Assembly (NCBI GenBank): GCA_965208325.1
Contig: OZ242326.1
Span: 32,001-96,000 of the forward strand
From: Candidatus Poribacteria bacterium
GTDB taxonomy: Bacteria > Poribacteria > WGA-4E > PCPOR2b
Reading direction: 5' to 3'
Length of the DNA: 64,000 nucleotides
This document shows positions 42,907 through 54,959 of the stretch, in pieces (position 1 is the first letter of the stretch; each line of letters starts with the position of its first letter). The notes below the pieces were generated by a model, which saw only the letters and a program-made list of their open reading frames with translations, searched no databases and was not told the origin of the DNA. The position numbers and the translations under genes are program-made.

Positions 42907-45900
42907 TCAAGTCCAATTGTTTTGGCGCCCACTATTCCCGCTTCTGCCTGGATCCGCTGCTGAACCTTTGCCGAAAGACATTTCTGTAAAATACTGTGCT
43001 TGGATGTTAATCAACTCGCCCTCACGCTGCAAGATGCCGCAAACGCACACAAACGGAGAAAGCTTGAAAATCGATCGGTAGCGATTATAAACATCGCGCG
43101 AAATAATCACATTGAGCAGGCTTTCCTCGTCCTCAATTAGCATGAAGGCGACTCCCTTTGCCGTGGCAGGTTTTTGTATACACACGACTAGCCCCGCTAC
43201 GCAGGTTCTTACGCCGTTTCGAAGTTTTTTCAGCGTGTCGCCGCGCCGGACACTCTTATTGAGCGTATTCCGAATGTACTGCATCGGATGAGTATGCGTC
43301 GAAAACCCCTGAACGCGGTATTCCCACGCTAACTGAGACCATAAGTCAATTCTTGGCAGCGGCGGCGCGGTGATGTCCGGATGGATGAGCAAATTCTTAT
43401 CTCGCCACCGGTCAAGTATCCACAGTTGCCACGACAGTTCCCTGCGCGGCAAACCAAAATCATCGAACGCGCCGGCGCCTATCAGATTTTCGATATTAGA
43501 TGAACTGAGTTGTGTCCGTAGGACGAAATCCTGCAGCGACTTGAACCGCCCGCGCTCACGGGCATTCACAATTGACTCGGCCTTCGCCGTACTGATACCT
43601 TTCACACAGACTAAACTTAATCGAATAGCTTGCGGTTCTGTATTTTCGAGATAACAACGGACACCGCTGCGATTAACGTTCACGCTTAAGATTTTTACCC
43701 CGCTGCGCTGGGCGTCGGCTATCAAGATTCGCACCGGATAGAACCCAAGCGGCTGATTGTTAATGAGCGCTGCAGTATAAGCGGCTGGATAGTAGCGCTT
43801 AAGCCATGCCGACTGGTAAGCGAGCTGGGCGAACACTAAAGCGTGCGATTTACAAAATCCATAGCCTGCAAACCCTTTAATACAGTCGAAAATCTGGATC
43901 GCATCGCTGCGCGAAACCCCGTTTCTGACCGCGCTGTCCACGAAGTCGACTTCCATCTTGTCAACAACTTTCTTAAAGCGGTGTTTATCCAGATCGCGCC
44001 TCAAATTTTCAGCCTTGCCAGCGGTGTAACCGGCAATGGCGCAAGCGATTTGGACGATCTGTTCTTGAAAGAGCACCACCCCCAGCGTCTCTTCAAGAAT
44101 TGGCTCAAGCAGGCGGTGCTGATACTGAATTCTCTCACGCCCCTGTCTTCGCCGAATGTAGGGGTTCACGGCGCGTCCTTGTACCGGCCCCGGCCTTATT
44201 ATCGCCACTTCAATTGCTAGGTCTAACAAATTGTGCGGTTTGACGCGCGGCAACGTCTGCATTTGGACGCGCGATTCGATTTGGAACAATCCAATCGTGT
44301 CGGCGCGGGCAATCATATCGTATACGTCGGCATCGTCAGTATTAATGTCCGCTAGGTCAATTTTAAGTCCGTAAGCCTCGGCAATCAAAATAAGGCATTC
44401 TCTAATGACAGCGAGGATGCCCAAGCCTAATAAGTCCACTTTGATCAGGCCCGCGGTTTCAACATAATCTTTGTCCCATTGGCAGATTCGTTGCCCTTGC
44501 GTCGTTGAATACTGCAGCGGCACTAACTTCGTAAGTTCACACGAAGTGATTATCATCCCGCCCGGATGGGTCGAAACGTGGCGGGGCGTTCCGATTACCG
44601 CCTGAACCTGATCTCGGAAATGCCGCCACTTTGCTTGTTTGGTATAACAATCAAACTGCTTGAATGTCTCAATCTTGCTAAAGGCTGGTTCTGGATCTTT
44701 TCGTCCTTCCGTGAAGCGTGACATCGTTTCCAACAGAGATTGCGGGTAGCCAAAAACCTTGCCAATCTCGCGGATAGCCATCTTGACGCCGAAGGTGATG
44801 AACGTGCAGGTCAATCCTACACAATCAACGCCGTATTTACGCTGAACGTAGTTCAGGACATCATCTCGATCAGGCAACCGAACATCGCGCGCAGAGGCGA
44901 AATCGAGGTCAATGTCCGGAATTGTAGATCGCTCTTCGTTGAGAAAACGGGCGAATACCAAATTATACGCAATCGGATCCACTGTCGTAATATCGAGAAG
45001 ATAAGTCACAAGCGAATTCGCCGCCGAACCGCGGCCCTGTGTCGGGATGCCCTTAGATTGGGCGAATTGCACGATATCCCACACCATTAAGAAATATCCG
45101 GCAAGGCCTAGACGCCCGATAAGCGTAAGTTCCTCGCGCAGTCTAGCTCTAATCCGGTCTGTTATTGAGGCATACTTTTTGGAGAGCGATGCCTCACATA
45201 GCATGGTCAAATATGTGCTTTCCGTATAGCCCGCAGGCACGGCATAGTTCGGGAATCGATATTTAGAAAAATCGAACTCAACATTGCATTGCTCACTGAT
45301 TAGCCGCGTATTCTTCAACGCCGACGGCATTTCTCTAAATAGCGCCGCCATTTCCTGCGGCGGCTTGAGATAGCGTTGATGGTTTGCGGACCGTATCCCG
45401 TCCGATTCGTCTAGTGTCACTTTATGGACGATGCACCGCATCACATCGTGCAATCGCGCCTTATCCTCAGCCGCATAATGCACCGCATTGCTAGCGGCGC
45501 ACGGCAGGCATAACTCGTGCGCTAGTTGACACAGTGCTTTGCAGAGACCGGTATCACCGGGTTCGAGATGGTTGTTGAGCTCGATATAGAGATGGCCGCC
45601 GGAAAAGATTTGGCGGTACGCATCTAAACGCGCCCGCGCCAATTCAATCTGATTCTGCTGCAAGAGCGCGGCGGCGTGGCTCTGTTTTCCAATCAGGCAA
45701 ATGAGATTACGTGAGCATTCGCTGAGTTGCTCTGCTGTTACTTGCGGATCGGATGCCGCGTTGGCGTGAGCTTGAGTAATCAACCGCGAAAGTTGATGAT
45801 AACCCGTAATGTCTTGGCACAATAAAACGACTTTATCAACTTTATCGTCTAAGGCTACGGAAATGACAGAACCGACAATGCTGTGAAGCCCAATCTCTTC

Positions 45901-46062
45901 GCATCGGTTAATAAACGGAATCACGCCGTACAAGCCGGCTGTATCCGTTAACGCCAACCCTTTCAATCCCAGTTTCTGCGCCCGCTCGGCAAGTACATCC
46001 GGGCTGGAAGTGCCATCCAAAAAACTGTAATAGCTATGACAGTGAAGTTCGGCGTAGTCCAT
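42907..46062 (-). CDS. dnaE2: Error-prone DNA polymerase III alpha subunit (DnaE2/ImuC)
   Basis: YAELHCHSYYSFLDG PHP domain, GRGSAANS, PDIDLDF, HPGG, YGFCKSHA, QKPATAKG; flanked by imuB-like and SRAP genes. Confidence 0.92.
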   Translation of the reverse strand: MDYAELHCHSYYSFLDGTSSPDVLAERAQKLGLKGLALTDTAGLYGVIPFINRCEEIGLHSIVGSVISVALDDKVDKVVLLCQDITGYHQLSRLITQAHANAASDPQVTAEQLSECSRNLICLIGKQSHAAALLQQNQIELARARLDAYRQIFSGGHLYIELNNHLEPGDTGLCKALCQLAHELCLPCAASNAVHYAAEDKARLHDVMRCIVHKVTLDESDGIRSANHQRYLKPPQEMAALFREMPSALKNTRLISEQCNVEFDFSKYRFPNYAVPAGYTESTYLTMLCEASLSKKYASITDRIRARLREELTLIGRLGLAGYFLMVWDIVQFAQSKGIPTQGRGSAANSLVTYLLDITTVDPIAYNLVFARFLNEERSTIPDIDLDFASARDVRLPDRDDVLNYVQRKYGVDCVGLTCTFITFGVKMAIREIGKVFGYPQSLLETMSRFTEGRKDPEPAFSKIETFKQFDCYTKQAKWRHFRDQVQAVIGTPRHVSTHPGGMIITSCELTKLVPLQYSTTQGQRICQWDKDYVETAGLIKVDLLGLGILAVIRECLILIAEAYGLKIDLADINTDDADVYDMIARADTIGLFQIESRVQMQTLPRVKPHNLLDLAIEVAIIRPGPVQGRAVNPYIRRRQGRERIQYQHRLLEPILEETLGVVLFQEQIVQIACAIAGYTAGKAENLRRDLDKHRFKKVVDKMEVDFVDSAVRNGVSRSDAIQIFDCIKGFAGYGFCKSHALVFAQLAYQSAWLKRYYPAAYTAALINNQPLGFYPVRILIADAQRSGVKILSVNVNRSGVRCYLENTEPQAIRLSLVCVKGISTAKAESIVNARERGRFKSLQDFVLRTQLSSSNIENLIGAGAFDDFGLPRRELSWQLWILDRWRDKNLLIHPDITAPPLPRIDLWSQLAWEYRVQGFSTHTHPMQYIRNTLNKSVRRGDTLKKLRNGVRTCVAGLVVCIQKPATAKGVAFMLIEDEESLLNVIISRDVYNRYRSIFKLSPFVCVCGILQREGELINIQAQYFTEMSFGKGSAADPGRSGNSGRQNNWT

Positions 46063-46102
46063 TAATAGTCAATGCCATTCATATTTACACATGTTTCGGT
46101 AA

Positions 46103-46313
46103 GAACCTGTTTGAAAATTCATTTTATTACAGTACGCCACCACGCCTTGTAGGCGGGGCATCTTGCCCCGCCCAATGCTGGAGTAAGGTATTTGGTGGAA
46201 TCAAGCGACCGAATTGCGAAGGCGATAGTAAATCCCGCGCGATAGAAGTTCCACCGGTAATAGCAACTCAAACGCACAAGAATGGCTTTGTCACCTATTA
46301 TTCAAACAGGCTC
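46103..46313. mobile_element. MITE with IS5-like terminal inverted repeats and a TAA target duplication
   Basis: TAA|GAACCTGTTTGAAAATT ... ATTATTCAAACAGGCTC|TAA; internal GTAGGCGGGGCATCTTGCCCCGC REP-like hairpin; related to the copy at 1-335. Confidence 0.75.
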
Positions 46314-46316
46314 TAA

Positions 46317-46380
46317 GTGCGGTTTCCAACCGCACCTATGGACTGGATAAATACCGGTTCGGTTAGGAAACCGAACCTAT
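46317..46380. repeat. Two tandem REP-like hairpins
   Basis: GTGCGGTT-TCC-AACCGCAC-CTAT and GGTTCGGTT-AGG-AAACCGAACC-TAT. Confidence 0.6.
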
Positions 46381-47181
46381 CTATCGGCATAGTTTCCAAT
46401 CGTCACGGACAAGATCGTGGCAAACTGTTAACTCGCGTCCGGAAGTATACAATTTGAAGTAAATCAACTCTTGCGGTTTTTCTGTCCACCAAGCGTCCTC
46501 TAGCTTCCAGACATCTATAATGCCGTCAAAATATAGCCACTTGTCATCGTATCGCATGCGCTCGGGAAAGTCGATGCACCCAATTTTTTTTGACGTTACC
46601 GCAATTCGCTCTGAATGGCCGCTGAGTTCCTTGCCCCAGATGGTTAAATGTTGTGCAGTGGTGTCAGCGGTTATTGGCGGTTGATAGAACGTAAGCGGGG
46701 ATGGGTCGACGCCTTTTCCTAACTCTGACATCGCAGCCCCTTGCTTTCCAAATTGCCGGATTAGATCCGCCTTTTTGATGTTAGCCAACTGTCCGAGCAT
46801 GCAGAGTCCCAATCTGTCCAGACGCCTATGCAGTTCGGCATCGAGCGGCAGAAGCGAAACGCTCTGATTTGCCATAAACGCCGGCGTCTCCTCTGATGAT
46901 ACGACGCACGCCGCATCCGGGGTTGCGTTTTGCGCCGCGGCAAGACTGGCGAAACGGGACGATGCGACACCGACGCGGATATCGGGGCAAATCCCTTTCA
47001 GCTCGCCTCGTAAATGTCTGATGAAATCGTCGGCTTCGTCCGTAATTTCGGAGACCCCTAAATTTACATAGATGCTGTTATTTTTGATTTCACACCTCAG
47101 ACGCCCAGCCTCTTCCGTCAATATTTCTTGAATCTCTTTTAATTGAGCCTTAAGGTTCTCTACCAGCAAGCAAGCAATCAT
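46381..47181 (-). CDS. Short ImuB-like (inactive Y-family polymerase) accessory protein
   Basis: RVGVASSRFASLAAA, FMANQSVSLLP..LDRLGLCMLGQLA..LIRQFG..GVD thumb region, C-terminal W..EDAWW...YF...CHDL..DDW; upstream of dnaE2. Confidence 0.75.
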   Translation of the reverse strand: MIACLLVENLKAQLKEIQEILTEEAGRLRCEIKNNSIYVNLGVSEITDEADDFIRHLRGELKGICPDIRVGVASSRFASLAAAQNATPDAACVVSSEETPAFMANQSVSLLPLDAELHRRLDRLGLCMLGQLANIKKADLIRQFGKQGAAMSELGKGVDPSPLTFYQPPITADTTAQHLTIWGKELSGHSERIAVTSKKIGCIDFPERMRYDDKWLYFDGIIDVWKLEDAWWTEKPQELIYFKLYTSGRELTVCHDLVRDDWKLCR

Positions 47182-47251: not shown

Positions 47252-47407
47252 GAAAAAAATCACCCCGAATAATCATTCGCCGAATTCTTCCGAAAAGGCG
47301 GCAACGAATACTGTGCTACGGCGCGTTACGGCTGGTCAATACAGGTCGGGGATTGGGGGTAAGCTTCTGTAGGTTGGGTAGATCAATCAACCGACCGAAC
47401 AGTCTTT

Positions 47408-47442
47408 GAAACCGAGTTTTTTATAGTTTGTATCAAATGACC
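47408..47442 (+). repeat. Left bipartite inverted repeat
   Basis: GAAACCGAGTTTT-N9-GTATCAAATGACC. Confidence 0.9.
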
Positions 47443-47505
47443 CCATGAGTTAAACTGATAACAGATGTTATTTCCATCAATTACCATGAATCCATGGAGG
47501 TCATT

Positions 47506-48306
47506 ATGAAACCACAAAGTCATTCAAACTACGGTATCAATCGTCTGGAATCAAAGACGGCGAGAGCGGCAATTATTCAGAAGATTGCGTCAGACTTCAA
47601 TCTGATGCCTATCCTTGCCGAAGCCTACTATAATCAGATTTCTTCCTACTTTGCCCAACACGCCGATATTAAACTCACATCAGGCCAAATCTGCTATGAA
47701 GCCGTAGCCGCCGACGAACCCGCAGGTAAACACATTGCCTTAGCCAAAAAGGTCTCCTGCCAACTCACCCTCAATGATGTGCACACCGATCTTGAGGTGT
47801 TAGCCAACTATGGACTTGCAGGACTCAGACGACATCGAATCTTACGGTTAACCAAACAAGCCTATGACCAAGACGCTTTGCTCAGCTATGAAGATTTAGC
47901 GGTGCTATTAACCACCAGCCCGGCGACCGTCAAACGAGACATTCGACAGTTGAAACAGCAAGGGTTTTTTGTAATGACTCGCGGCGCCAAACACGACATG
48001 GGCCCCGGCATCTCTCATAAAACCCAAATCCTAGAACTGTACTTTAAAGGCTATCAATTCACCGACATTGAGCGAAAGACGAACCACACCGAACGCGCCG
48101 TGTTGAGATACTTGCGTAATTTCACTCAGGTAGCAACCCTCCATCATCAAGACTTTCCAAAGGAACAGATACGGCTCATCACCCATCTCTCTGACCGATT
48201 GATTCGTGAGTATCTCTCCCTGTATGATAAATACGAACATACAGAGCGAATGACGACTTTACTTCATCCTGAACCCGTTGATGAAAAAAAGGGGGAAAAC
48301 TCATGA
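47506..48306 (+). CDS. DUF1670-like protein (first paralog)
   Basis: RLTKQAYDQDALLSYEDLAVLL..SPATVKRD, TRGAKHDMGPGISHK and HTERAVLRY motifs; GGAGG RBS before ATG 47506. Confidence 0.8.
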   Translation: MKPQSHSNYGINRLESKTARAAIIQKIASDFNLMPILAEAYYNQISSYFAQHADIKLTSGQICYEAVAADEPAGKHIALAKKVSCQLTLNDVHTDLEVLANYGLAGLRRHRILRLTKQAYDQDALLSYEDLAVLLTTSPATVKRDIRQLKQQGFFVMTRGAKHDMGPGISHKTQILELYFKGYQFTDIERKTNHTERAVLRYLRNFTQVATLHHQDFPKEQIRLITHLSDRLIREYLSLYDKYEHTERMTTLLHPEPVDEKKGENS

Positions 48307-49196
48307 GTAAATCATTGACTCGAACCGAAATCAACGAGAAGAAAATCAGACGTATCAATGATAAATCGTTGCGGCAGTTGCTGATTCATCGCTTTATCAA
48401 TTCCTATGGGTATGACAAAGGCGAAGTGACTGCCAAAGCCATTGTCGATGACATCGTCAAAACTATTGAAGACTATTTCCTGATTCGCTTGCCACTTGAT
48501 AAACTCGCCGCTGGAGAACAACTTCCTGATGAACGAATGCTTAGCTATGGTCAACTGGTTTGGATGGCTGTGCCGATTGACGAATATCCACAGAGAGCCA
48601 AGTCAATCGTTAAAACCCGCATGAAGCCTGTGGTTTTAAGCTTTGTGGCCCCCGAGGACATTGAACACTATTACAGCGGCTTCAGCTCTCGTGAACTCAG
48701 AATTCATCGATTGGTGCGATGGTGTTATCAAGCCTATGACCAAGGGGCATTGTTGACTCAACTAGACCTGGCTGTGTTGCTCAACGTCCGCGACCCAGTA
48801 GTGAGTGAGTATGTCAACGAGTGGCAAAGCACCAGTGGAAAAATCTTGCCCACTCGCGGCAACATTCACGATTTATCGGCGGCAATTACACACAAGAAGG
48901 AGATTATTACCCTTTATCTACAAGGGCACCTGACTCCGACCATTGCTGCCAAAACCAAGCACTCCAAAGAAGCTGTTGACCGATACATCCATGATTATGA
49001 GTCCGTTAAGATTGTTCGCACCGCTACCGATGACATTGACAAAATCTCTCAGATTACCAAACTTTCCAAGCGCGTCATCTCTCAATATCTCGACCTAATT
49101 CCTCAACATTCGCTGAATGACATCAACGCAAACTTGGAAGACGGCAAAGATAACACCGTGCCGTCCAGTTCCAAACCTACAGGAGACTTGCAATGA
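48303..49196 (+). CDS. DUF1670-like protein (second paralog)
   Basis: RWCYQAYDQGALLTQLDLAVLL, PTRGNIHDLSAAITHK and HSKEAVDRY motifs; ATGA overlap with the first paralog. Confidence 0.8.
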   Translation: MSKSLTRTEINEKKIRRINDKSLRQLLIHRFINSYGYDKGEVTAKAIVDDIVKTIEDYFLIRLPLDKLAAGEQLPDERMLSYGQLVWMAVPIDEYPQRAKSIVKTRMKPVVLSFVAPEDIEHYYSGFSSRELRIHRLVRWCYQAYDQGALLTQLDLAVLLNVRDPVVSEYVNEWQSTSGKILPTRGNIHDLSAAITHKKEIITLYLQGHLTPTIAAKTKHSKEAVDRYIHDYESVKIVRTATDDIDKISQITKLSKRVISQYLDLIPQHSLNDINANLEDGKDNTVPSSSKPTGDLQ

Positions 49197-49405
49197 CAGC
49201 ATACGCCTATTATTGCTTAGACATGGGAAAACAACGTCTCTTTCTTTGGCATCGGCTTGGCACGCCATAGCCATTTTGGTATACTTTGTCACGCTTCTAG
49301 CCAAACCAAATGAATTTCTTGACGGATAAGCTAATTAAGCCAACATAACTCGCTCATTTGATGATGGCTCGAAGTCAGTAACCACGCGCATTCCAACTAT
49401 CATCA

Positions 49406-49441
49406 GGTCATTTGATACTATTTTCTTCAAAACTCGGTTTC
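49406..49441 (-). repeat. Right bipartite inverted repeat
   Basis: GGTCATTTGATAC-N10-AAAACTCGGTTTC; both 13-bp arms are exact reverse complements of the left repeat arms. Confidence 0.9.
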
Positions 49442-49545
49442 TTAATCGCAGCAAAACCTGTACTTTAGCCCCAGCGGGGCGGCAGGTATATAGAAAACAC
49501 AGTAACCCAATCCCCAAAGCCCCAGATGAGAATCAACCGACCGAA

Positions 49546-50460
49546 TAGAGAGGGATCAACTGAGCGGATAGCGAAGGCGATAGTCTTCTCAAGTTATTAT
49601 AGTTCTTGTAGGTTGGGTAGAGCGGATTCATCCAAAAACATCCATGAAAACGAACCGCCCTGTCAACCGCAACACGTACAAAATTCGAGGCTTGTAGCGA
49701 AACCCAACGCTTTTAAAACCTCACCCATCCCAATTGATTACCAAACACCAACACCGCTGCTAATCCCGGACAACCCTTTTTCCATGAACCTACCCCCAAT
49801 GGTTAAACAATCATGCTTGTCCAATAAGGTGTAAGTGCTAGGAAATCCGGCTACGCTTCATAACCGAATGATCATGTGCGCTCTTAATCATCGCCCATCA
49901 TTCAATCAAAAAAATCACAGTTCAGACAGTTCTTGTAGGTTGGGATTAATTCAGCGCCTAGATCAACCGACTGTATAAGGCGCGCAATAGCGTTTTTGCA
50001 ATCTCAATTCCCCTCCTTACCAAGGAGGGGATAGGGGAGGTTATAGGACGGATCAGCTCAGCGCACAAGGAGTGCAATAGTCTTGGTTCTTAAAGTTCGA
50101 ATCTCGCCGTGGAACCTACTCCCGAAAATCTCGAATCCACCCCCGTCGGAGCGATCTCCGAATCGCGAAACATACCCTCATAATCACAGTCCATTCATTT
50201 AATCATATAAATCACAGTTCAGACAGTTTTTGTAGGTTGGGTAGAGCGGATACACCGAAACATGCCCATTATAACGAACCGCTCTGTAAGCTGAATGTAT
50301 GCAAGATACGCTGGATGCAGCGAAACCCAACGCTTTTATAACCTCCGCCCCTCCAAAAACGTCGGGTTTCAGTGAAGACTATGAGTAAATTATCGCTCTC
50401 CCTGCTCGGTCGGTTGATCCGTCGCTATTCGCTCAGTTGTTCGTTCTACAAAACCTACAA
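49546..50460. repeat. Dense cluster of REP/MITE-like repeats
   Basis: ~115-bp imperfect direct repeats at 49607-49722 and 50231-50345 (TGTAGGTTGGGTAGAGCGGA...GCGAAACCCAAC); AAATCACAGTTCAGACAGTT at 49912 and 50209; CCCCTCCTT-ACC-AAGGAGGGG hairpin; CAACTGAGCG(G/A)ATAGCGA copies shared with 105-135. Confidence 0.8.
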
Positions 50461-50681: not shown

Positions 50682-53600
50682 ATGGCAAATAAAAAACCAC
50701 GAAAACGACGCAAAAAAGCAAACCTGCAAGCAAACCCCAAGCGGCAAGCATACGATCCGCTAAGGGGATACCGCTATCAAATATTGCACAGCGTACACGC
50801 TTGGTTGGGCCTTTCTGAAGATCAGGACCTCTATCTGGAATGTGCGGGAGATTTTGACACGATATCAGATGATGTTGCTACGGCAGTGCAGGTCAAAGAC
50901 ACGAAACACAACATCACGCTCAGATCTCAAGAAGTAACTGATGCAATCAACAACTATTGGAAATTGCGAGCGGACAACCCCGATAGGCGTGTGAAATTCC
51001 GTCTTCTCACACGATCCAAGATAGGCACGGAACGCGGAAACCCGTTTGGAGAGGGTAAATCGGGGCTTCACGTGTGGGGTCGCTGTGCAGACGATGAAGC
51101 AACTATCACGGAACTCTCTAAATTTCTGCAGTCAGATGAAAAAATTACAGATGACGTGAAGAACTTTCTAAAAAAATCAGATTCCAAAGAAATCTACGAA
51201 AAGCTCATTGAACCTATTTCTTGGGAAACGGGCAGCAAACCCGCTAGTTATGTTGAGCAATCTATACATGACAAACTAGTTCTTCACGGGAATCAACTCG
51301 GTTTCTTACCTTCTGAAGCCAAAAAAGTTGTTGATCCGCTAATCCAAGAAGCTTGGAAGGTAGCAACGCAAAAGGCAAACCGCGTTCTCACCAAAACCCG
51401 ATTCCTCGAAATTTTCGAGAAACAGACTACACAAATAGTCTCGACCCAGTATTTGCGGCATCTGCAAATGCAGGTCGCTACCATGAGTAATGTTGGCACT
51501 CCCTTTATAGGTGACCCAACTGATATATCAATTCAATCTCACTCTTCTATACTGAAAACAATACCGCCGCTCTATCCTGATGTAACTTCAAGAACCAGTT
51601 TGCTTGCAAGCATTCATGCTAAACTTCTTTCAGAGGGGATAGTTGTCATTCACGGCGGAGCAGGAAGAGGAAAGACAACACTCGCAAAATTAACCGCAAA
51701 GGAGACAAGCGAATCATGGTTTTGGCTGAATCTAACTAATAGAGAGCCGTCTCAAGTAGTCCACCATTTACAACAACTCACTATTGAAATCAGTAATCAA
51801 CCCACACCAGTCAACATCGCCCTTGACGATCTGAATTTACAACCCCAGCAGTTACGGAGGTATGAAGAAATCTTGGGAGTAGTGGTTTATAGAGTGTTTG
51901 AGCGTGGTGCAAAAGTGCTGATTTCAAGCCAACATGAACCCCACGACAATCTCACCCGCCAACTCGGTGTATCACGGTCAGTGGCTGTTGATGTGGGTGA
52001 CTTTTCGCTATCTGAAATTGAGCAATTTGCAAAACAGTTGGGGTGTCCTGCTGAAGACGCAAAAAAATGTGCACAGGTAGTCCTGTGGCATACAAGTGGA
52101 CATCCGAGACTTGTACACGCTCGACTCGCTCGACTACGGCAAGATAACTGGACTCGACCAGATATAATCGAAAGCATGGTGCAAACACCCGGAGAGGTAT
52201 TGGACGAACGGGAAGCCGCGCGACAATTGCTCGTAGAGTTGCCAGACGATCAACAGGAATTTCTCTATAGACTTAGCTTGTTGCCTATGCCTTTCCGGAG
52301 AGATTGCGCGCTCTACATCGGCGAGATAACAAAACCTATCCCTTTTTCAGGAAATATTTTCAGTCAACTAGTCGGTCCTTGGATAGATCAAATTCATAAA
52401 ACCTACTACACAATTTCACCTTTATTGACTAATGCGGCCAAGCAGATTTGGCCAGAAAAAAAGATAAACGACCTTCACGCTCAAATCGCAGAGGCAATCC
52501 TCGAATCGACAGATCTGACCAAAATAGAAGCACGGGCTGTGCTCTATCATAGTATGCTCGGACAGAACGAGCTAGGCTTTTTTGTTGTGATTCAGGCATT
52601 GATGACCGCTCCAGAGCACCATTGGAAAGAACTTAGCCATGAATTCTCGTGGTTGATACATCTTAAAACTGATTCTCGCGGAATGTTATTTCTTCAGAAT
52701 CCCGTTGTGAATAATCTCTTTCGCTCACTCCAACATCGTATTGCGGTTGAGGTCGAACCAGAGGCTGCACCAAAGATACTTGAAAATTGGGATAAGAAAG
52801 TTGTGCCATACGAGCCGGACCATTTGTATCACCTAGATCGCCTAATGCTGGCACAGCAGGCATTGACGTATGGCCAATCGTCACTTTCAGCCAAAAAGAT
52901 AGTAGGCTATCTCAAAGAGATTATCGAAATTACAAAAAAACATAAAGAATTCTTAGAATCAGATGATGATTCGACGGGAAAGCTTAAAGGATATAAAACC
53001 GATAAATCTAACTTTTTCAGCCTTCTAGTTGGCTTTATTTGTGCTCGTCGTCCAATTTACGCTCCGTTTCTCAGCAGCCTTATTGGCGAGTTGGATGAAC
53101 TTCAACCGGAAAGTCGGACTTTATTATTGGCTGATTTCGAGGATGATACCATTCACTCTCGAGTTCTCATGGATGGTATATGGGAATCGGAGGCGAACCG
53201 CGAAAATCCGGATTGGACAAGATGTTTTCAGGTATTAGACAAAGCAATTGAACGAACTATCGCTTGGGGTTATCCCCATCTCGCTGCTGCATCAGCAAGG
53301 TGTAAAGCCATGATCCATGATGAATGCTTACATGATGCCGATACGGCCCATAAAATTCTTCAGGATATAATATTAAAAGTGGGGCAATTTCCGGTGCTAG
53401 AAGAAGCAATAGCAGCCATATATTTGAATCAGGGACGCTATAAGGAAGCACTCAATATTTATGAGCGAATTCTTCCCGACTGGAATCCACCGTCGGGACA
53501 GTTGGATGTTATGCCTCCAGAAGGTTGTCGTCGCGCCGCAATTTGCGCCGCAAATTTGGGCGATTGGGGTAAAGCCGCCGCCTTTTTTGTAGATGGAGCT

Positions 53601-54959
53601 AATAGAACTCGTGAGAACACCGAAAGACATATCGGGTTTTATGCGGATGCGGGATATGCGCAATTCAAGGCCGGTTATTTCCTAGATAGCATAAGTCTAT
53701 TGAAACGGGCGTTGCAAACATTTGAGATACTTCAGCAAAACAATGGACATGACAGGTATTTTACTATAAAGCGACGTTTAGCGTACACTTTGAAATGGAT
53801 GACAGAGCAAGAGGGTGAATTTAGATCCTCAGAACTTGTAGAACCCCCGGTGGGTTTCTGCACCAATCCGGAGACAGATGAAGGTGTTTCATCTCTGCCT
53901 GATTTTTCAATCGCGTACGCTTGGCTTTATCTAGCGCAGATTGAATACAACTTTGGTCATGGAACAGAGGCTTTAGAGCACGCCGTGGACGTCATGGACG
54001 GTGATGAATGTCCCAACTTAGATTTCATTCGCGCTTTCGCGGAAACACAAAAAGATTTTAGAAACAAAACCTTTGATGAACTGCCACAACGAATAAATCA
54101 ACTAGTGATTGCGTGTGACTTAGTACAGAGTCATATCAAGAGTGCGAAGGGACTTGAAGAACAACGAGACAAAAATTTGCCTAGTGTAAATCCTCCCAAT
54201 TTCGCTTCTGTTGCGAACATCACCACTATGTTAGTAGCCGCACTGCTTGTTCAAATGTGGACTAACTCAGGTATGCATAGTGTTCTAGCAACATGGCGTA
54301 GAAATTCAGCGGAACTACCCATCCAAGAAAACATGTTCAGTGTTCTCGATCTGATTGAATCCATGTTATCCAGAGACCAAAAGCACGCGTTGGATGTAAT
54401 GAGAACGCAAGGAGCCAAATATGAAAAACGGCTTGTGGCAACATTAAAGATTCTCAATAGTAACAAAACGAGCCCGGAAATTCTCTTCCATGCACATGTG
54501 CTCATCACGACAGCTTTCATTGGTCAGCTGTATGAAGGATATGTCATCCAGGACTTAGCTGAATCTCTTTCTGCACAATGGCTAGAAAAAACTAGAGCGC
54601 CCGGAATTTTGCAAATGCCAAGGATTACGGTCCCTGAGATAGAACGTGCTTGCAAGGGGAGTGAGTCTGCGAAGAAAAAAATTGGCAAAATTCTCCTCGC
54701 CGCACAACAAGCTGTCTCAATAAGGGTGTCGACTGAAACCGTACAGCAGTTTCGTAATTGGGCAGAATCGGAATCAAGCGCGAAACAGGAACCGAAAACA
54801 GCAAAAAATCCGATAGCACAACGCCTAATCCGCGCGATGGAAAAACCGCCGCATCTCACCCATGAAGACGTTGAAACGCTGCGTCAATCAATCGAAGAAG
54901 GTAAAATTCCTGTAAAATTCGACTCGCCTTTTGAGCCGGATGAATCTGAAAAGCAATGA
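50682..54959 (+). CDS. Avs-like antiviral protein: N-terminal PD-(D/E)xK nuclease (Cap4-like), STAND NTPase and helical/TPR region
   Basis: LRGYRYQ..LYLECAGDF..AVQVK nuclease motif, GGAGRGKT Walker A, IALDDL Walker B, TSGHPRLV (GxP) and TPR-like helices (YKEALNIYERIL). Confidence 0.75.
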   Translation: MANKKPRKRRKKANLQANPKRQAYDPLRGYRYQILHSVHAWLGLSEDQDLYLECAGDFDTISDDVATAVQVKDTKHNITLRSQEVTDAINNYWKLRADNPDRRVKFRLLTRSKIGTERGNPFGEGKSGLHVWGRCADDEATITELSKFLQSDEKITDDVKNFLKKSDSKEIYEKLIEPISWETGSKPASYVEQSIHDKLVLHGNQLGFLPSEAKKVVDPLIQEAWKVATQKANRVLTKTRFLEIFEKQTTQIVSTQYLRHLQMQVATMSNVGTPFIGDPTDISIQSHSSILKTIPPLYPDVTSRTSLLASIHAKLLSEGIVVIHGGAGRGKTTLAKLTAKETSESWFWLNLTNREPSQVVHHLQQLTIEISNQPTPVNIALDDLNLQPQQLRRYEEILGVVVYRVFERGAKVLISSQHEPHDNLTRQLGVSRSVAVDVGDFSLSEIEQFAKQLGCPAEDAKKCAQVVLWHTSGHPRLVHARLARLRQDNWTRPDIIESMVQTPGEVLDEREAARQLLVELPDDQQEFLYRLSLLPMPFRRDCALYIGEITKPIPFSGNIFSQLVGPWIDQIHKTYYTISPLLTNAAKQIWPEKKINDLHAQIAEAILESTDLTKIEARAVLYHSMLGQNELGFFVVIQALMTAPEHHWKELSHEFSWLIHLKTDSRGMLFLQNPVVNNLFRSLQHRIAVEVEPEAAPKILENWDKKVVPYEPDHLYHLDRLMLAQQALTYGQSSLSAKKIVGYLKEIIEITKKHKEFLESDDDSTGKLKGYKTDKSNFFSLLVGFICARRPIYAPFLSSLIGELDELQPESRTLLLADFEDDTIHSRVLMDGIWESEANRENPDWTRCFQVLDKAIERTIAWGYPHLAAASARCKAMIHDECLHDADTAHKILQDIILKVGQFPVLEEAIAAIYLNQGRYKEALNIYERILPDWNPPSGQLDVMPPEGCRRAAICAANLGDWGKAAAFFVDGANRTRENTERHIGFYADAGYAQFKAGYFLDSISLLKRALQTFEILQQNNGHDRYFTIKRRLAYTLKWMTEQEGEFRSSELVEPPVGFCTNPETDEGVSSLPDFSIAYAWLYLAQIEYNFGHGTEALEHAVDVMDGDECPNLDFIRAFAETQKDFRNKTFDELPQRINQLVIACDLVQSHIKSAKGLEEQRDKNLPSVNPPNFASVANITTMLVAALLVQMWTNSGMHSVLATWRRNSAELPIQENMFSVLDLIESMLSRDQKHALDVMRTQGAKYEKRLVATLKILNSNKTSPEILFHAHVLITTAFIGQLYEGYVIQDLAESLSAQWLEKTRAPGILQMPRITVPEIERACKGSESAKKKIGKILLAAQQAVSIRVSTETVQQFRNWAESESSAKQEPKTAKNPIAQRLIRAMEKPPHLTHEDVETLRQSIEEGKIPVKFDSPFEPDESEKQ

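Follow-up and report, generated by a model that had tools for sequence, protein, structure and literature searches.

A mobile DUF1670 gene pair in Candidatus Poribacteria, proposed as a target-specific insertion sequence of an undescribed family

In a 64,000-nucleotide stretch of a Candidatus Poribacteria genome (assembly GCA_965208325.1, contig OZ242326.1, positions 32,001 to 96,000 of the forward strand; hereafter the window), we found an element at 47423-49421 that carries a pair of genes of the DUF1670 family and whose mobility we regard as practically certain. On balance, we favour the view that it is an insertion sequence that is autonomous and target-specific, belongs to a family not yet described and has the DUF1670 pair as its predicted transposase. 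The genome (G000), a single contig of 4.71 Mb, is sponge-symbiont-like. All coordinates are window positions unless G000 C1 is named.

Copies, empty sites and limits of the element

A mobile element had been proposed here by an initial annotation made from the letters alone, and this was borne out both by its copies and by an empty site in a second genome of the same genus (G002). The search for further copies returned three more in the same genome, giving four that are about 100% identical and lie at unrelated loci. G002 is collinear with the window flanks (94-99% identity) and joins ~47422 directly to ~49421; its empty site is an intact hairpin with seven T, where the window has six T, the element and three T. 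This count of seven T against six plus three sets the element at 47423-49421 with a 2-bp TT duplication. The reciprocal case is locus L019, which is occupied in its own genome and empty in the window genome (four T versus three plus three). In both pairs the empty sites have no A at the junction and the duplicated dinucleotide is TT. Because two such pairs exist, and because the window genome has four copies and G002 two, at different sites, we conclude that the element moved recently. Three features by which insertion sequences are recognised, namely near-identical copies, a precise empty site and terminal repeats with a short duplication, are present. The element and its immediate surroundings comprise the following features.

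47423-49421, plus strand: mobile element, 1,999 bp, ATAG…CTAT; four genomic copies and an empty site in G002
47421-47422, no strand: left TT target duplication, from the T-counts of empty and occupied sites
49422-49423, no strand: right TT target duplication; TT follows CTAT in 78 of 78 two-ended copies
47423-47449, plus strand: left terminal inverted repeat, ATAG-TTTG-TATCAAATGACC-CCATGAG
49397-49421, minus strand: right terminal inverted repeat, pairing with the left end and conserved likewise
49352-49363, minus strand: subterminal copy of the repeat core, CATCAAATGAGC on the minus strand, with 2 mismatches to the core
47408-47420, plus strand: left arm of the host hairpin (target, outside the element); 116 empty hairpins in the genome, intact in G002
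49429-49441, plus strand: right arm of the host hairpin (target, outside the element), on the same basis
47385-47402, plus strand: direct repeat copy 1, AATCAACCGACCGAA(C/T)AG, a dispersed host repeat outside the element
49531-49548, plus strand: direct repeat copy 2, AATCAACCGACCGAA(C/T)AG, a dispersed host repeat outside the element

The terminal inverted repeats are about 25 nt long and imperfect, the left being the reverse complement of the right save for a 4-nt indel. Among aligned copies, the first and last 40-nt blocks of the element are the best conserved (mean column agreement 0.94 and 0.93) and its 3' non-coding part is the least conserved (0.48-0.83). Sites resembling the repeat core number six in the element, versus 1.7 expected from shuffles.

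The bipartite inverted repeats described by the initial annotation do exist, GAAACCGAGTTTT and GTATCAAATGACC being located at 47408-47442 and 49406-49441, but their halves differ in nature. The inner half (GTATCAAATGACC) is the true terminal repeat of the element, whereas the outer half is the stem of a hairpin that the host already possessed and into whose loop the element inserted. When the genome is searched with the DNA, similarity between copies starts at ~47405 and ends at ~49447, within the limits first drawn (47385-49548), and in an alignment of the four copies the hairpin arms and all that lies between them are common, with nothing in common further out. Since the identity of the other three copies stops there, the 15-bp direct repeat once taken for a recombination core or a long target duplication is outside the element; the other copies lack it, and the real duplication is TT. 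The empty allele had also been mispredicted, the actual one being the intact hairpin at the syntenic site of G002. An element of 47385-49548, with bipartite repeats and the direct repeat as its core or duplication, has thus next to no chance of being right: although its repeats are where it placed them, the other three copies do not extend so far, the empty allele of G002 retains the hairpin together with the upstream repeat module, and the outer arm belongs to a host repeat that is found empty 116 times.

Host hairpin and other dispersed repeats

The 13-nt outer arm GAAACCGAGTTTT has 151 exact occurrences in the genome, nearly always in a palindrome GAAACCGAGTTTT-loop-AAAACTCGGTTTC. The loop of the 116 hairpins that are intact and empty is TTCTTC/GAAGAA in 72 and TTTCTTC in 11, and many of these hairpins are arrayed with periods of ~150-490 bp. 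The element lies within the hairpin loop in all four copies of the window genome. Arrays of GAAACCGAGTTTT-TTCTTC-AAAACTCGGTTTC are often regular (periods of ~190, 350 or 490 bp), for example at G000 C1 1894625-1897583, 2032410-2036216 and 4209644-4212496.

The direct-repeat 15-mer belongs as a module to a host repeat that is dispersed or in tandem: it has four exact occurrences genome-wide, 49 with at most one mismatch, and more copies just downstream of the element (49555, 49962 and, inverted, 50402). The intergenic DNA at 47362-47402 and 49531-50460 is made of dispersed or tandem repeat modules, which include the AATCAACCGACCGAA module; a TGTAGGTTGGGTAGA module around the element has 153 exact genomic occurrences, and a module of ~72 nt is present at 49592-49663 and 50216-50287.

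Related elements and their choice of target

A scan of species-representative genomes confirmed 181 places, of which 80 loci were kept, several genomes giving many loci. These come from metagenome-assembled genomes titled Candidatus or uncultured Poribacteria, apart from one titled "uncultured bacterium". Together with the four copies of the window genome they make up 84 copies, whose ends were found by patterns. Both ends were found in 78 of them (element length 1,896-2,028 bp). Within the phylum, 19 of 81 genomes contain PF07900, the Pfam model of DUF1670, with 1-12 matches each and with some decayed copies; two of the four genomes of the genus are among them. Many homologues are found on contigs of ~2.0 kb, a pattern typical of collapsed repeats.

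The distinct insertions number 77. In 57 of them the element sits at the 3' end of a gene whose product has a C-terminal sorting tail like those of the type IX secretion system (T9SS), in 14 within a hairpin loop and in 6 at some other site. The target gene products end like …SG[IV]YFY.L…TRKM[LV]I.K. We scanned the last residues (at most 121) of 58 flanking frames with TIGR04183 (T9SS type A sorting domain; cut-off 23 bits): 53 match at E<=1e-3 and 52 reach the cut-off. The five misses are two hairpin-type sites (L025, L031), two short frames (L051, L063) and L078. On the gene strand, insertion occurs after the AA of the last Lys codon, that is between its bases 2 and 3, and the other flank begins with AAR followed by TAA, TAG or TGA. 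The terminal ATAG of the element recreates AAA-TAG (Lys-stop), and the host protein is therefore unchanged. The orientation is constant: it is the right end of the element that adjoins the end of the gene or, in a hairpin, the loop on its CTTC side. Close relatives (94-96% protein identity) nevertheless differ in their site, which is a hairpin in L020 and L022-L032, a T9SS-tail gene end in L030 and elsewhere in L019. Apart from TT-C and a few A's, a comparison of the T9SS-type with the hairpin targets showed little in common.

Loose ends of contigs from public sequencing runs fall at 47421 and 49423, the exact boundaries of the element, with other flanks there, some of them T9SS-tail-like. A genome-wide search for a partner element with the same terminal-repeat core found none, returning only the four copies, one piece resembling a miniature inverted-repeat transposable element (MITE) and five solo remnants. 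The MITE-like piece (~390 bp, G000 C1:2139015-2139403, L110) has the right-end motif and a degenerate left-end motif, and directly follows the stop codon of the gene for a 937-aa WD40 protein whose T9SS-type tail scores 28.9 bits with TIGR04183. Its interior resembles another dispersed repeat, found in the window at ~46100-46317. The remnants, which resemble the right end (~80% identity over at most ~110 nt), are at G000 C1:2325640, 2657331, 2718950, 4057023 (minus strand) and 4459139; all except the last are right behind the Lys-stop of a T9SS-tail-like frame. Judged by sequence, the five look like traces of older insertions or excisions. A replication-strand bias could not be made out, the GC skew being weak and the copies only four.

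For distant DUF1670 members, the plasmid collection gave no match, and a scan with a single protein gave two loci without clear terminal repeats, one of them decayed. Distant members again occur on short contigs and on several contigs each, which is a hint that they are mobile too.

The two DUF1670 proteins

The coding content of the element is a pair of open reading frames (ORFs).

47506-48306, plus strand: ORF A, 266 aa, DUF1670 (PF07900, E 7.4e-64, 215.6 bits)
48303-49196, plus strand: ORF B, 297 aa, DUF1670 paralogue (PF07900, E 1.1e-59, 201.9 bits)

Both match the hidden Markov model PF07900 as full-length members (cut-off 25 bits), as anticipated by the initial annotation, which had also described them correctly as paralogues (34% identity over 186 residues, E 2e-27). 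They overlap through ATGA and are the only conserved ORFs of the element, so that the pair is its sole coding content, as had been claimed; nor does the element hold a transposase or recombinase gene known to Pfam, NCBIfam, PHROGs or PADLOC, again in line with that account. Pfam annotates DUF1670 as a family of unknown function. A literature search found no paper naming DUF1670 or PF07900, and titles and abstracts on insertion sequences or transposases of Poribacteria held nothing relevant; ISfinder was outside the comparison.

By a simple criterion, both ORFs are intact in 68 of 80 loci. When the window copy is compared with eight diverged copies, A has a ratio of non-synonymous to synonymous substitution rates (dN/dS) of 0.049-0.109 and B one of 0.061-0.125, values that indicate strong purifying selection on both proteins. 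A word-indexed search at E<=1e-3 gave 1,433 homologues of A and 1,478 of B, and an exhaustive search with B gave 961 representative clusters (50% identity) at the same threshold. These clusters include proteins with two modules (521-544 aa) and with three (930-952 aa). A and B are fused in locus L066 (560 aa), and five closer in-frame A-B fusions (P0442-P0446) have 529-559 aa and a linker of ~15 residues. The source names of family members cover Poribacteria, Gemmatimonadota, Bacillota and Synergistales, and the control genome, Methanosarcina acetivorans, also matches.

The DUF1670 motif reads P.RG..HD.G...[ST]HK … H…V.RY. In an alignment of 84 sequences, the invariant positions are H197 and Y228 of B, and those kept in at least 90% are G83, L112, R139, A144, Q147, L151, D155, P183, G186, D190, G192, K198, H220 and Y262. 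No Ser is invariant among these sequences and no three acidic residues are conserved family-wide.

A helix-turn-helix (HTH) match of the DeoR-like type was found at residues 124-159 of A. The confident AlphaFold model of B (predicted local distance difference test score, pLDDT, 85.9; predicted template-modelling score, pTM, 0.62) is nearly all helical, with two short strands only. Residues 1-125 form a small N-terminal domain with two strands and four helices, residues 126-192 a domain resembling a winged helix, and residues 193-282 a second domain of HTH type, which is helical; the invariant Tyr and His lie inside the HTH-type domains. The model of A (pLDDT 56) was poor and was not used.

Expression signals

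Two features of the transcript may bear on expression.

48285-48291, plus strand: A AAA AAG heptamer, in a phase that fits a -1 shift from the end of ORF A into ORF B
47439-47502, plus strand: leader stem, in which GACCCCATGAG (47439-47449) pairs with TCCATGGAGGTC (47491-47502) over GGAGG, the Shine-Dalgarno sequence of ORF A

Of 79 related loci, 63 have the heptamer in phase, and every locus listed encodes the Lys-Lys by AAA-AAG. In L066, L072, L083 and L097, A and B are fused or shifted by length changes near the A-run. The leader has a fold z-score of -2.58; an 11-pair consensus stem persists across 32 leaders, among which compensatory changes are absent. Leader stems block the translation of read-through transcripts in other insertion sequences, and the present one could do the same or serve as a protein site. 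The 3' non-coding part (49190-49425) folds no better than shuffles (z -0.05), and Rfam gave nothing at gathering score over 47300-49700, with one sub-threshold snoRNA-like match.

Proposed mechanism and alternatives

We propose that A and B, each with two HTH-type domains behind a small N-terminal domain, would bind the terminal and subterminal repeats as well as the target. They would work jointly, whether they assemble into a heteromer or are joined in one A-B fusion by a -1 frameshift at A AAA AAG; joint action is suggested because natural DUF1670 fusions of two and three modules exist. That A and B are needed for movement we consider likely, and it is a somewhat better than even guess that they are themselves the catalytic enzyme that cuts and joins DNA. 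Our preferred candidate for the active site is a set of family-conserved His, Tyr, Lys and Asp (in B: D190, H197, K198, H220 and Y228), located partly within the two DNA-binding domains and partly between them. The junctions could arise in two ways: a cut-and-paste enzyme with a strict TT target might make breaks with a 2-nt stagger, or a circular form (CTAT-TT-ATAG, a near-palindrome) might recombine with the target through a 2-bp crossover. The invariant TT at both sides suits the two models, and the data do not tell them apart. As to autonomy, it is argued from the lack of a partner element with these ends and from the strong selection on both genes.

A more specific version holds that DUF1670 is a new catalytic class of transposase or recombinase, made entirely of HTH-type domains, active as a hetero-oligomer or fusion of paralogues, and relying on the Tyr/His/Lys/Asp cluster to break DNA with a 2-nt stagger or to cross over at TT. 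The ends would be recognised by one set of DNA-binding domains and a "safe harbour" of the host by another, the harbour being the hairpin loop or the last codon of a T9SS-tail gene. We advance this version tentatively, at a little less than even confidence.

Neither a joint skipping 47423-49421 nor a circle back-joint was found in four public runs, for which contigs only were searched; contigs drop rare forms, so that this negative carries no weight. Several observations weigh against the proposal. Pfam, NCBIfam, PHROGs and PADLOC assign A and B to no transposase, recombinase or defence family and give only HTH-type matches, for A. The B model has no match in the PDB by Foldseek at E<=1e-3, and a fold search independent of Foldseek returned only winged-helix, sigma-region-4, LuxR or SANT-like rows (Z <=6.3); the model of A was poor, and residues 1-125 of B were barely covered by the fold search. 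The invariant residues could simply contact DNA. Finally, the heptamer overlaps the ribosome-binding site of ORF B, and because the same bases form that site its conservation need not mean frameshifting; a real -1 shift at A AAA AAG is possible, but we lean against it. Searches of the ESM Atlas and of PDB sequences gave HTH-type leads only.

If A and B were not the enzyme, the element could be non-autonomous, its ends being recognised by a transposase encoded elsewhere, in a chromosomal gene or another insertion sequence, and the DUF1670 pair being DNA-binding passengers such as regulators or helpers in end or target binding. The transcription-factor type of the A and B domains would suit this, as would the failure to detect a catalytic fold or motif in either protein. 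We nevertheless judge it unlikely: the genome-wide search for the terminal-repeat core revealed no partner, and every full-length copy, in 80 loci of many genomes, carries the pair under strong purifying selection. That the pair is kept and selected would be expected of an element that requires A and B in order to spread.

Still less probable, in our view, is a division of labour in which A and B do no more than assemble the synaptic complex and select the target, while the DNA is cut and joined by a general enzyme of the host, for instance a topoisomerase, a repair nuclease or a Xer-type recombinase. The undetected catalytic domain speaks for it, and TT at both junctions is what a circular form could leave on crossing over with the target at 2 bp. 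The ends, however, show no evident dif-like site, and with homologues named from Poribacteria, Gemmatimonadota, Bacillota, Synergistales and Methanosarcina the host partner would have to be universal.

It is also improbable, slightly more so than a host enzyme, that a known catalytic domain (DDE/RNase H, tyrosine recombinase or topoisomerase-like 5Y-CAP) has diverged so far in DUF1670 that it goes unrecognised, in which case the element would be a new family of known chemistry. The top fold row for B is the winged-helix part of topoisomerase VI-A (1d3y_B, Z 6.3, root-mean-square deviation 2.3, 62 residues), the region that bears the catalytic tyrosine, and Spo11 is also among the rows (Z 5.1); topoisomerase VI cuts with a 2-nt stagger, and a Tyr and a His are invariant in the 84 sequences. 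But the topoisomerase VI-A row is tied with ordinary winged-helix regulators, many of which are within 1 Z unit of it. The B model, with its two short strands, has no RNase H-like sheet, and three acidic residues conserved across the family are missing. The fold rows for B, which barely cover residues 1-125, include no RNase H-like, resolvase-like, integrase-like or HUH-like chain, which, by the caution that comes with the search tool, is no proof that such folds are absent.

Other genes in the window and the genome

Upstream of the element, 42907-47181 (minus strand) holds a gene for an error-prone polymerase of DnaE2 type, with PHP, Pol III alpha, HHH and OB domains, and behind it an ORF of 266 aa, which has no match in Pfam or PADLOC and may be an imuB-like partner in a mutagenesis cassette. 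Downstream, a candidate anti-phage defence gene at 50682-54959 (plus strand) encodes a protein of 1,425 aa. Its N-terminal region resembles LmuA/Cap4 nucleases (E 2.2e-10 with PADLOC LmuA; the match to Pfam Cap4_nuclease is below cut-off), and TPR repeats and a weak signal of a STAND NTPase are present as well. Elsewhere in the genome, an insertion at G000 C1:1955780-1956400 carries an IS200/RAYT-like gene (…MPDHIHAVVQL…), flanked by GTAGGCGCGGCATCTTGCCGCGC repeats resembling repetitive extragenic palindromic (REP) sequences and by a duplicated stretch of ~35 bp.

Comparison with known systems and significance

We compared the element with known systems. Elements of the IS630/Tc1-mariner group are small, with terminal inverted repeats, a TA duplication, paired HTH domains and a DDE/D transposase. 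The present element shares with them the terminal inverted repeats, the duplication of one fixed dinucleotide and the predicted DNA-binding proteins with paired HTH domains; it differs in duplicating TT instead of TA, in having two paralogous genes and in choosing its target far more strictly, and neither the profiles of A and B nor the fold rows of B revealed a DDE/D domain. The IS1 and IS3 families encode the DDE domain in their second frame and produce duplications of 3-9 bp. Overlapping frames, the second at -1, and an in-phase A AAA AAG at the overlap are shared with our element, whereas here the second frame is another copy of the HTH-type protein and the duplication is of 2 bp.

Tn7 relies on TnsA/B/C and TnsD, and lands downstream of glmS at attTn7 with a 5-bp duplication. 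As with Tn7 and TnsD, a conserved 3' coding end of a host gene is used in one orientation and the gene is left active; unlike Tn7, the element inserts within the final codon, and does so in a whole family of T9SS-tail genes, its own end rebuilding the codon and the stop. IS1397 and ISKpn1 (IS3 family) and IS621 (IS110 family) target REP-like palindromes by means of DDE or DEDD transposases, IS621 with a bridge RNA. They resemble our element in inserting into short, abundant host palindromes (here the hairpin loop, in a single orientation), but no DDE or DEDD enzyme and no conserved non-coding RNA was found here. Among the remaining enzyme types, serine recombinases (IS607-type), tyrosine recombinases (R-K-H-R-H/W-Y) and HUH (Y1/Y2) transposases gave no match among the profiles of A and B or the fold rows of B, although 2-bp TT junctions are compatible with the chemistry of the first.

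To our knowledge, all known prokaryotic insertion sequences use DDE, DEDD, HUH, serine or tyrosine chemistry. The element described here is mobile, abundant and under selection without a recognisable known chemistry. If A and B catalyse its movement, they would represent a new enzyme class and would give a function to a Pfam family of 961 clusters; DUF1670 would then be a widespread and so far unrecognised sixth kind of prokaryotic transposase. The insertion of the element is base-precise, oriented and sparing of the host, and the preferred site shifts between close relatives, so that this compact system of two proteins may be of interest for targeted DNA insertion. For annotation, many "DUF1670" pairs and metagenome contigs of ~2 kb would be explained as insertion sequences.

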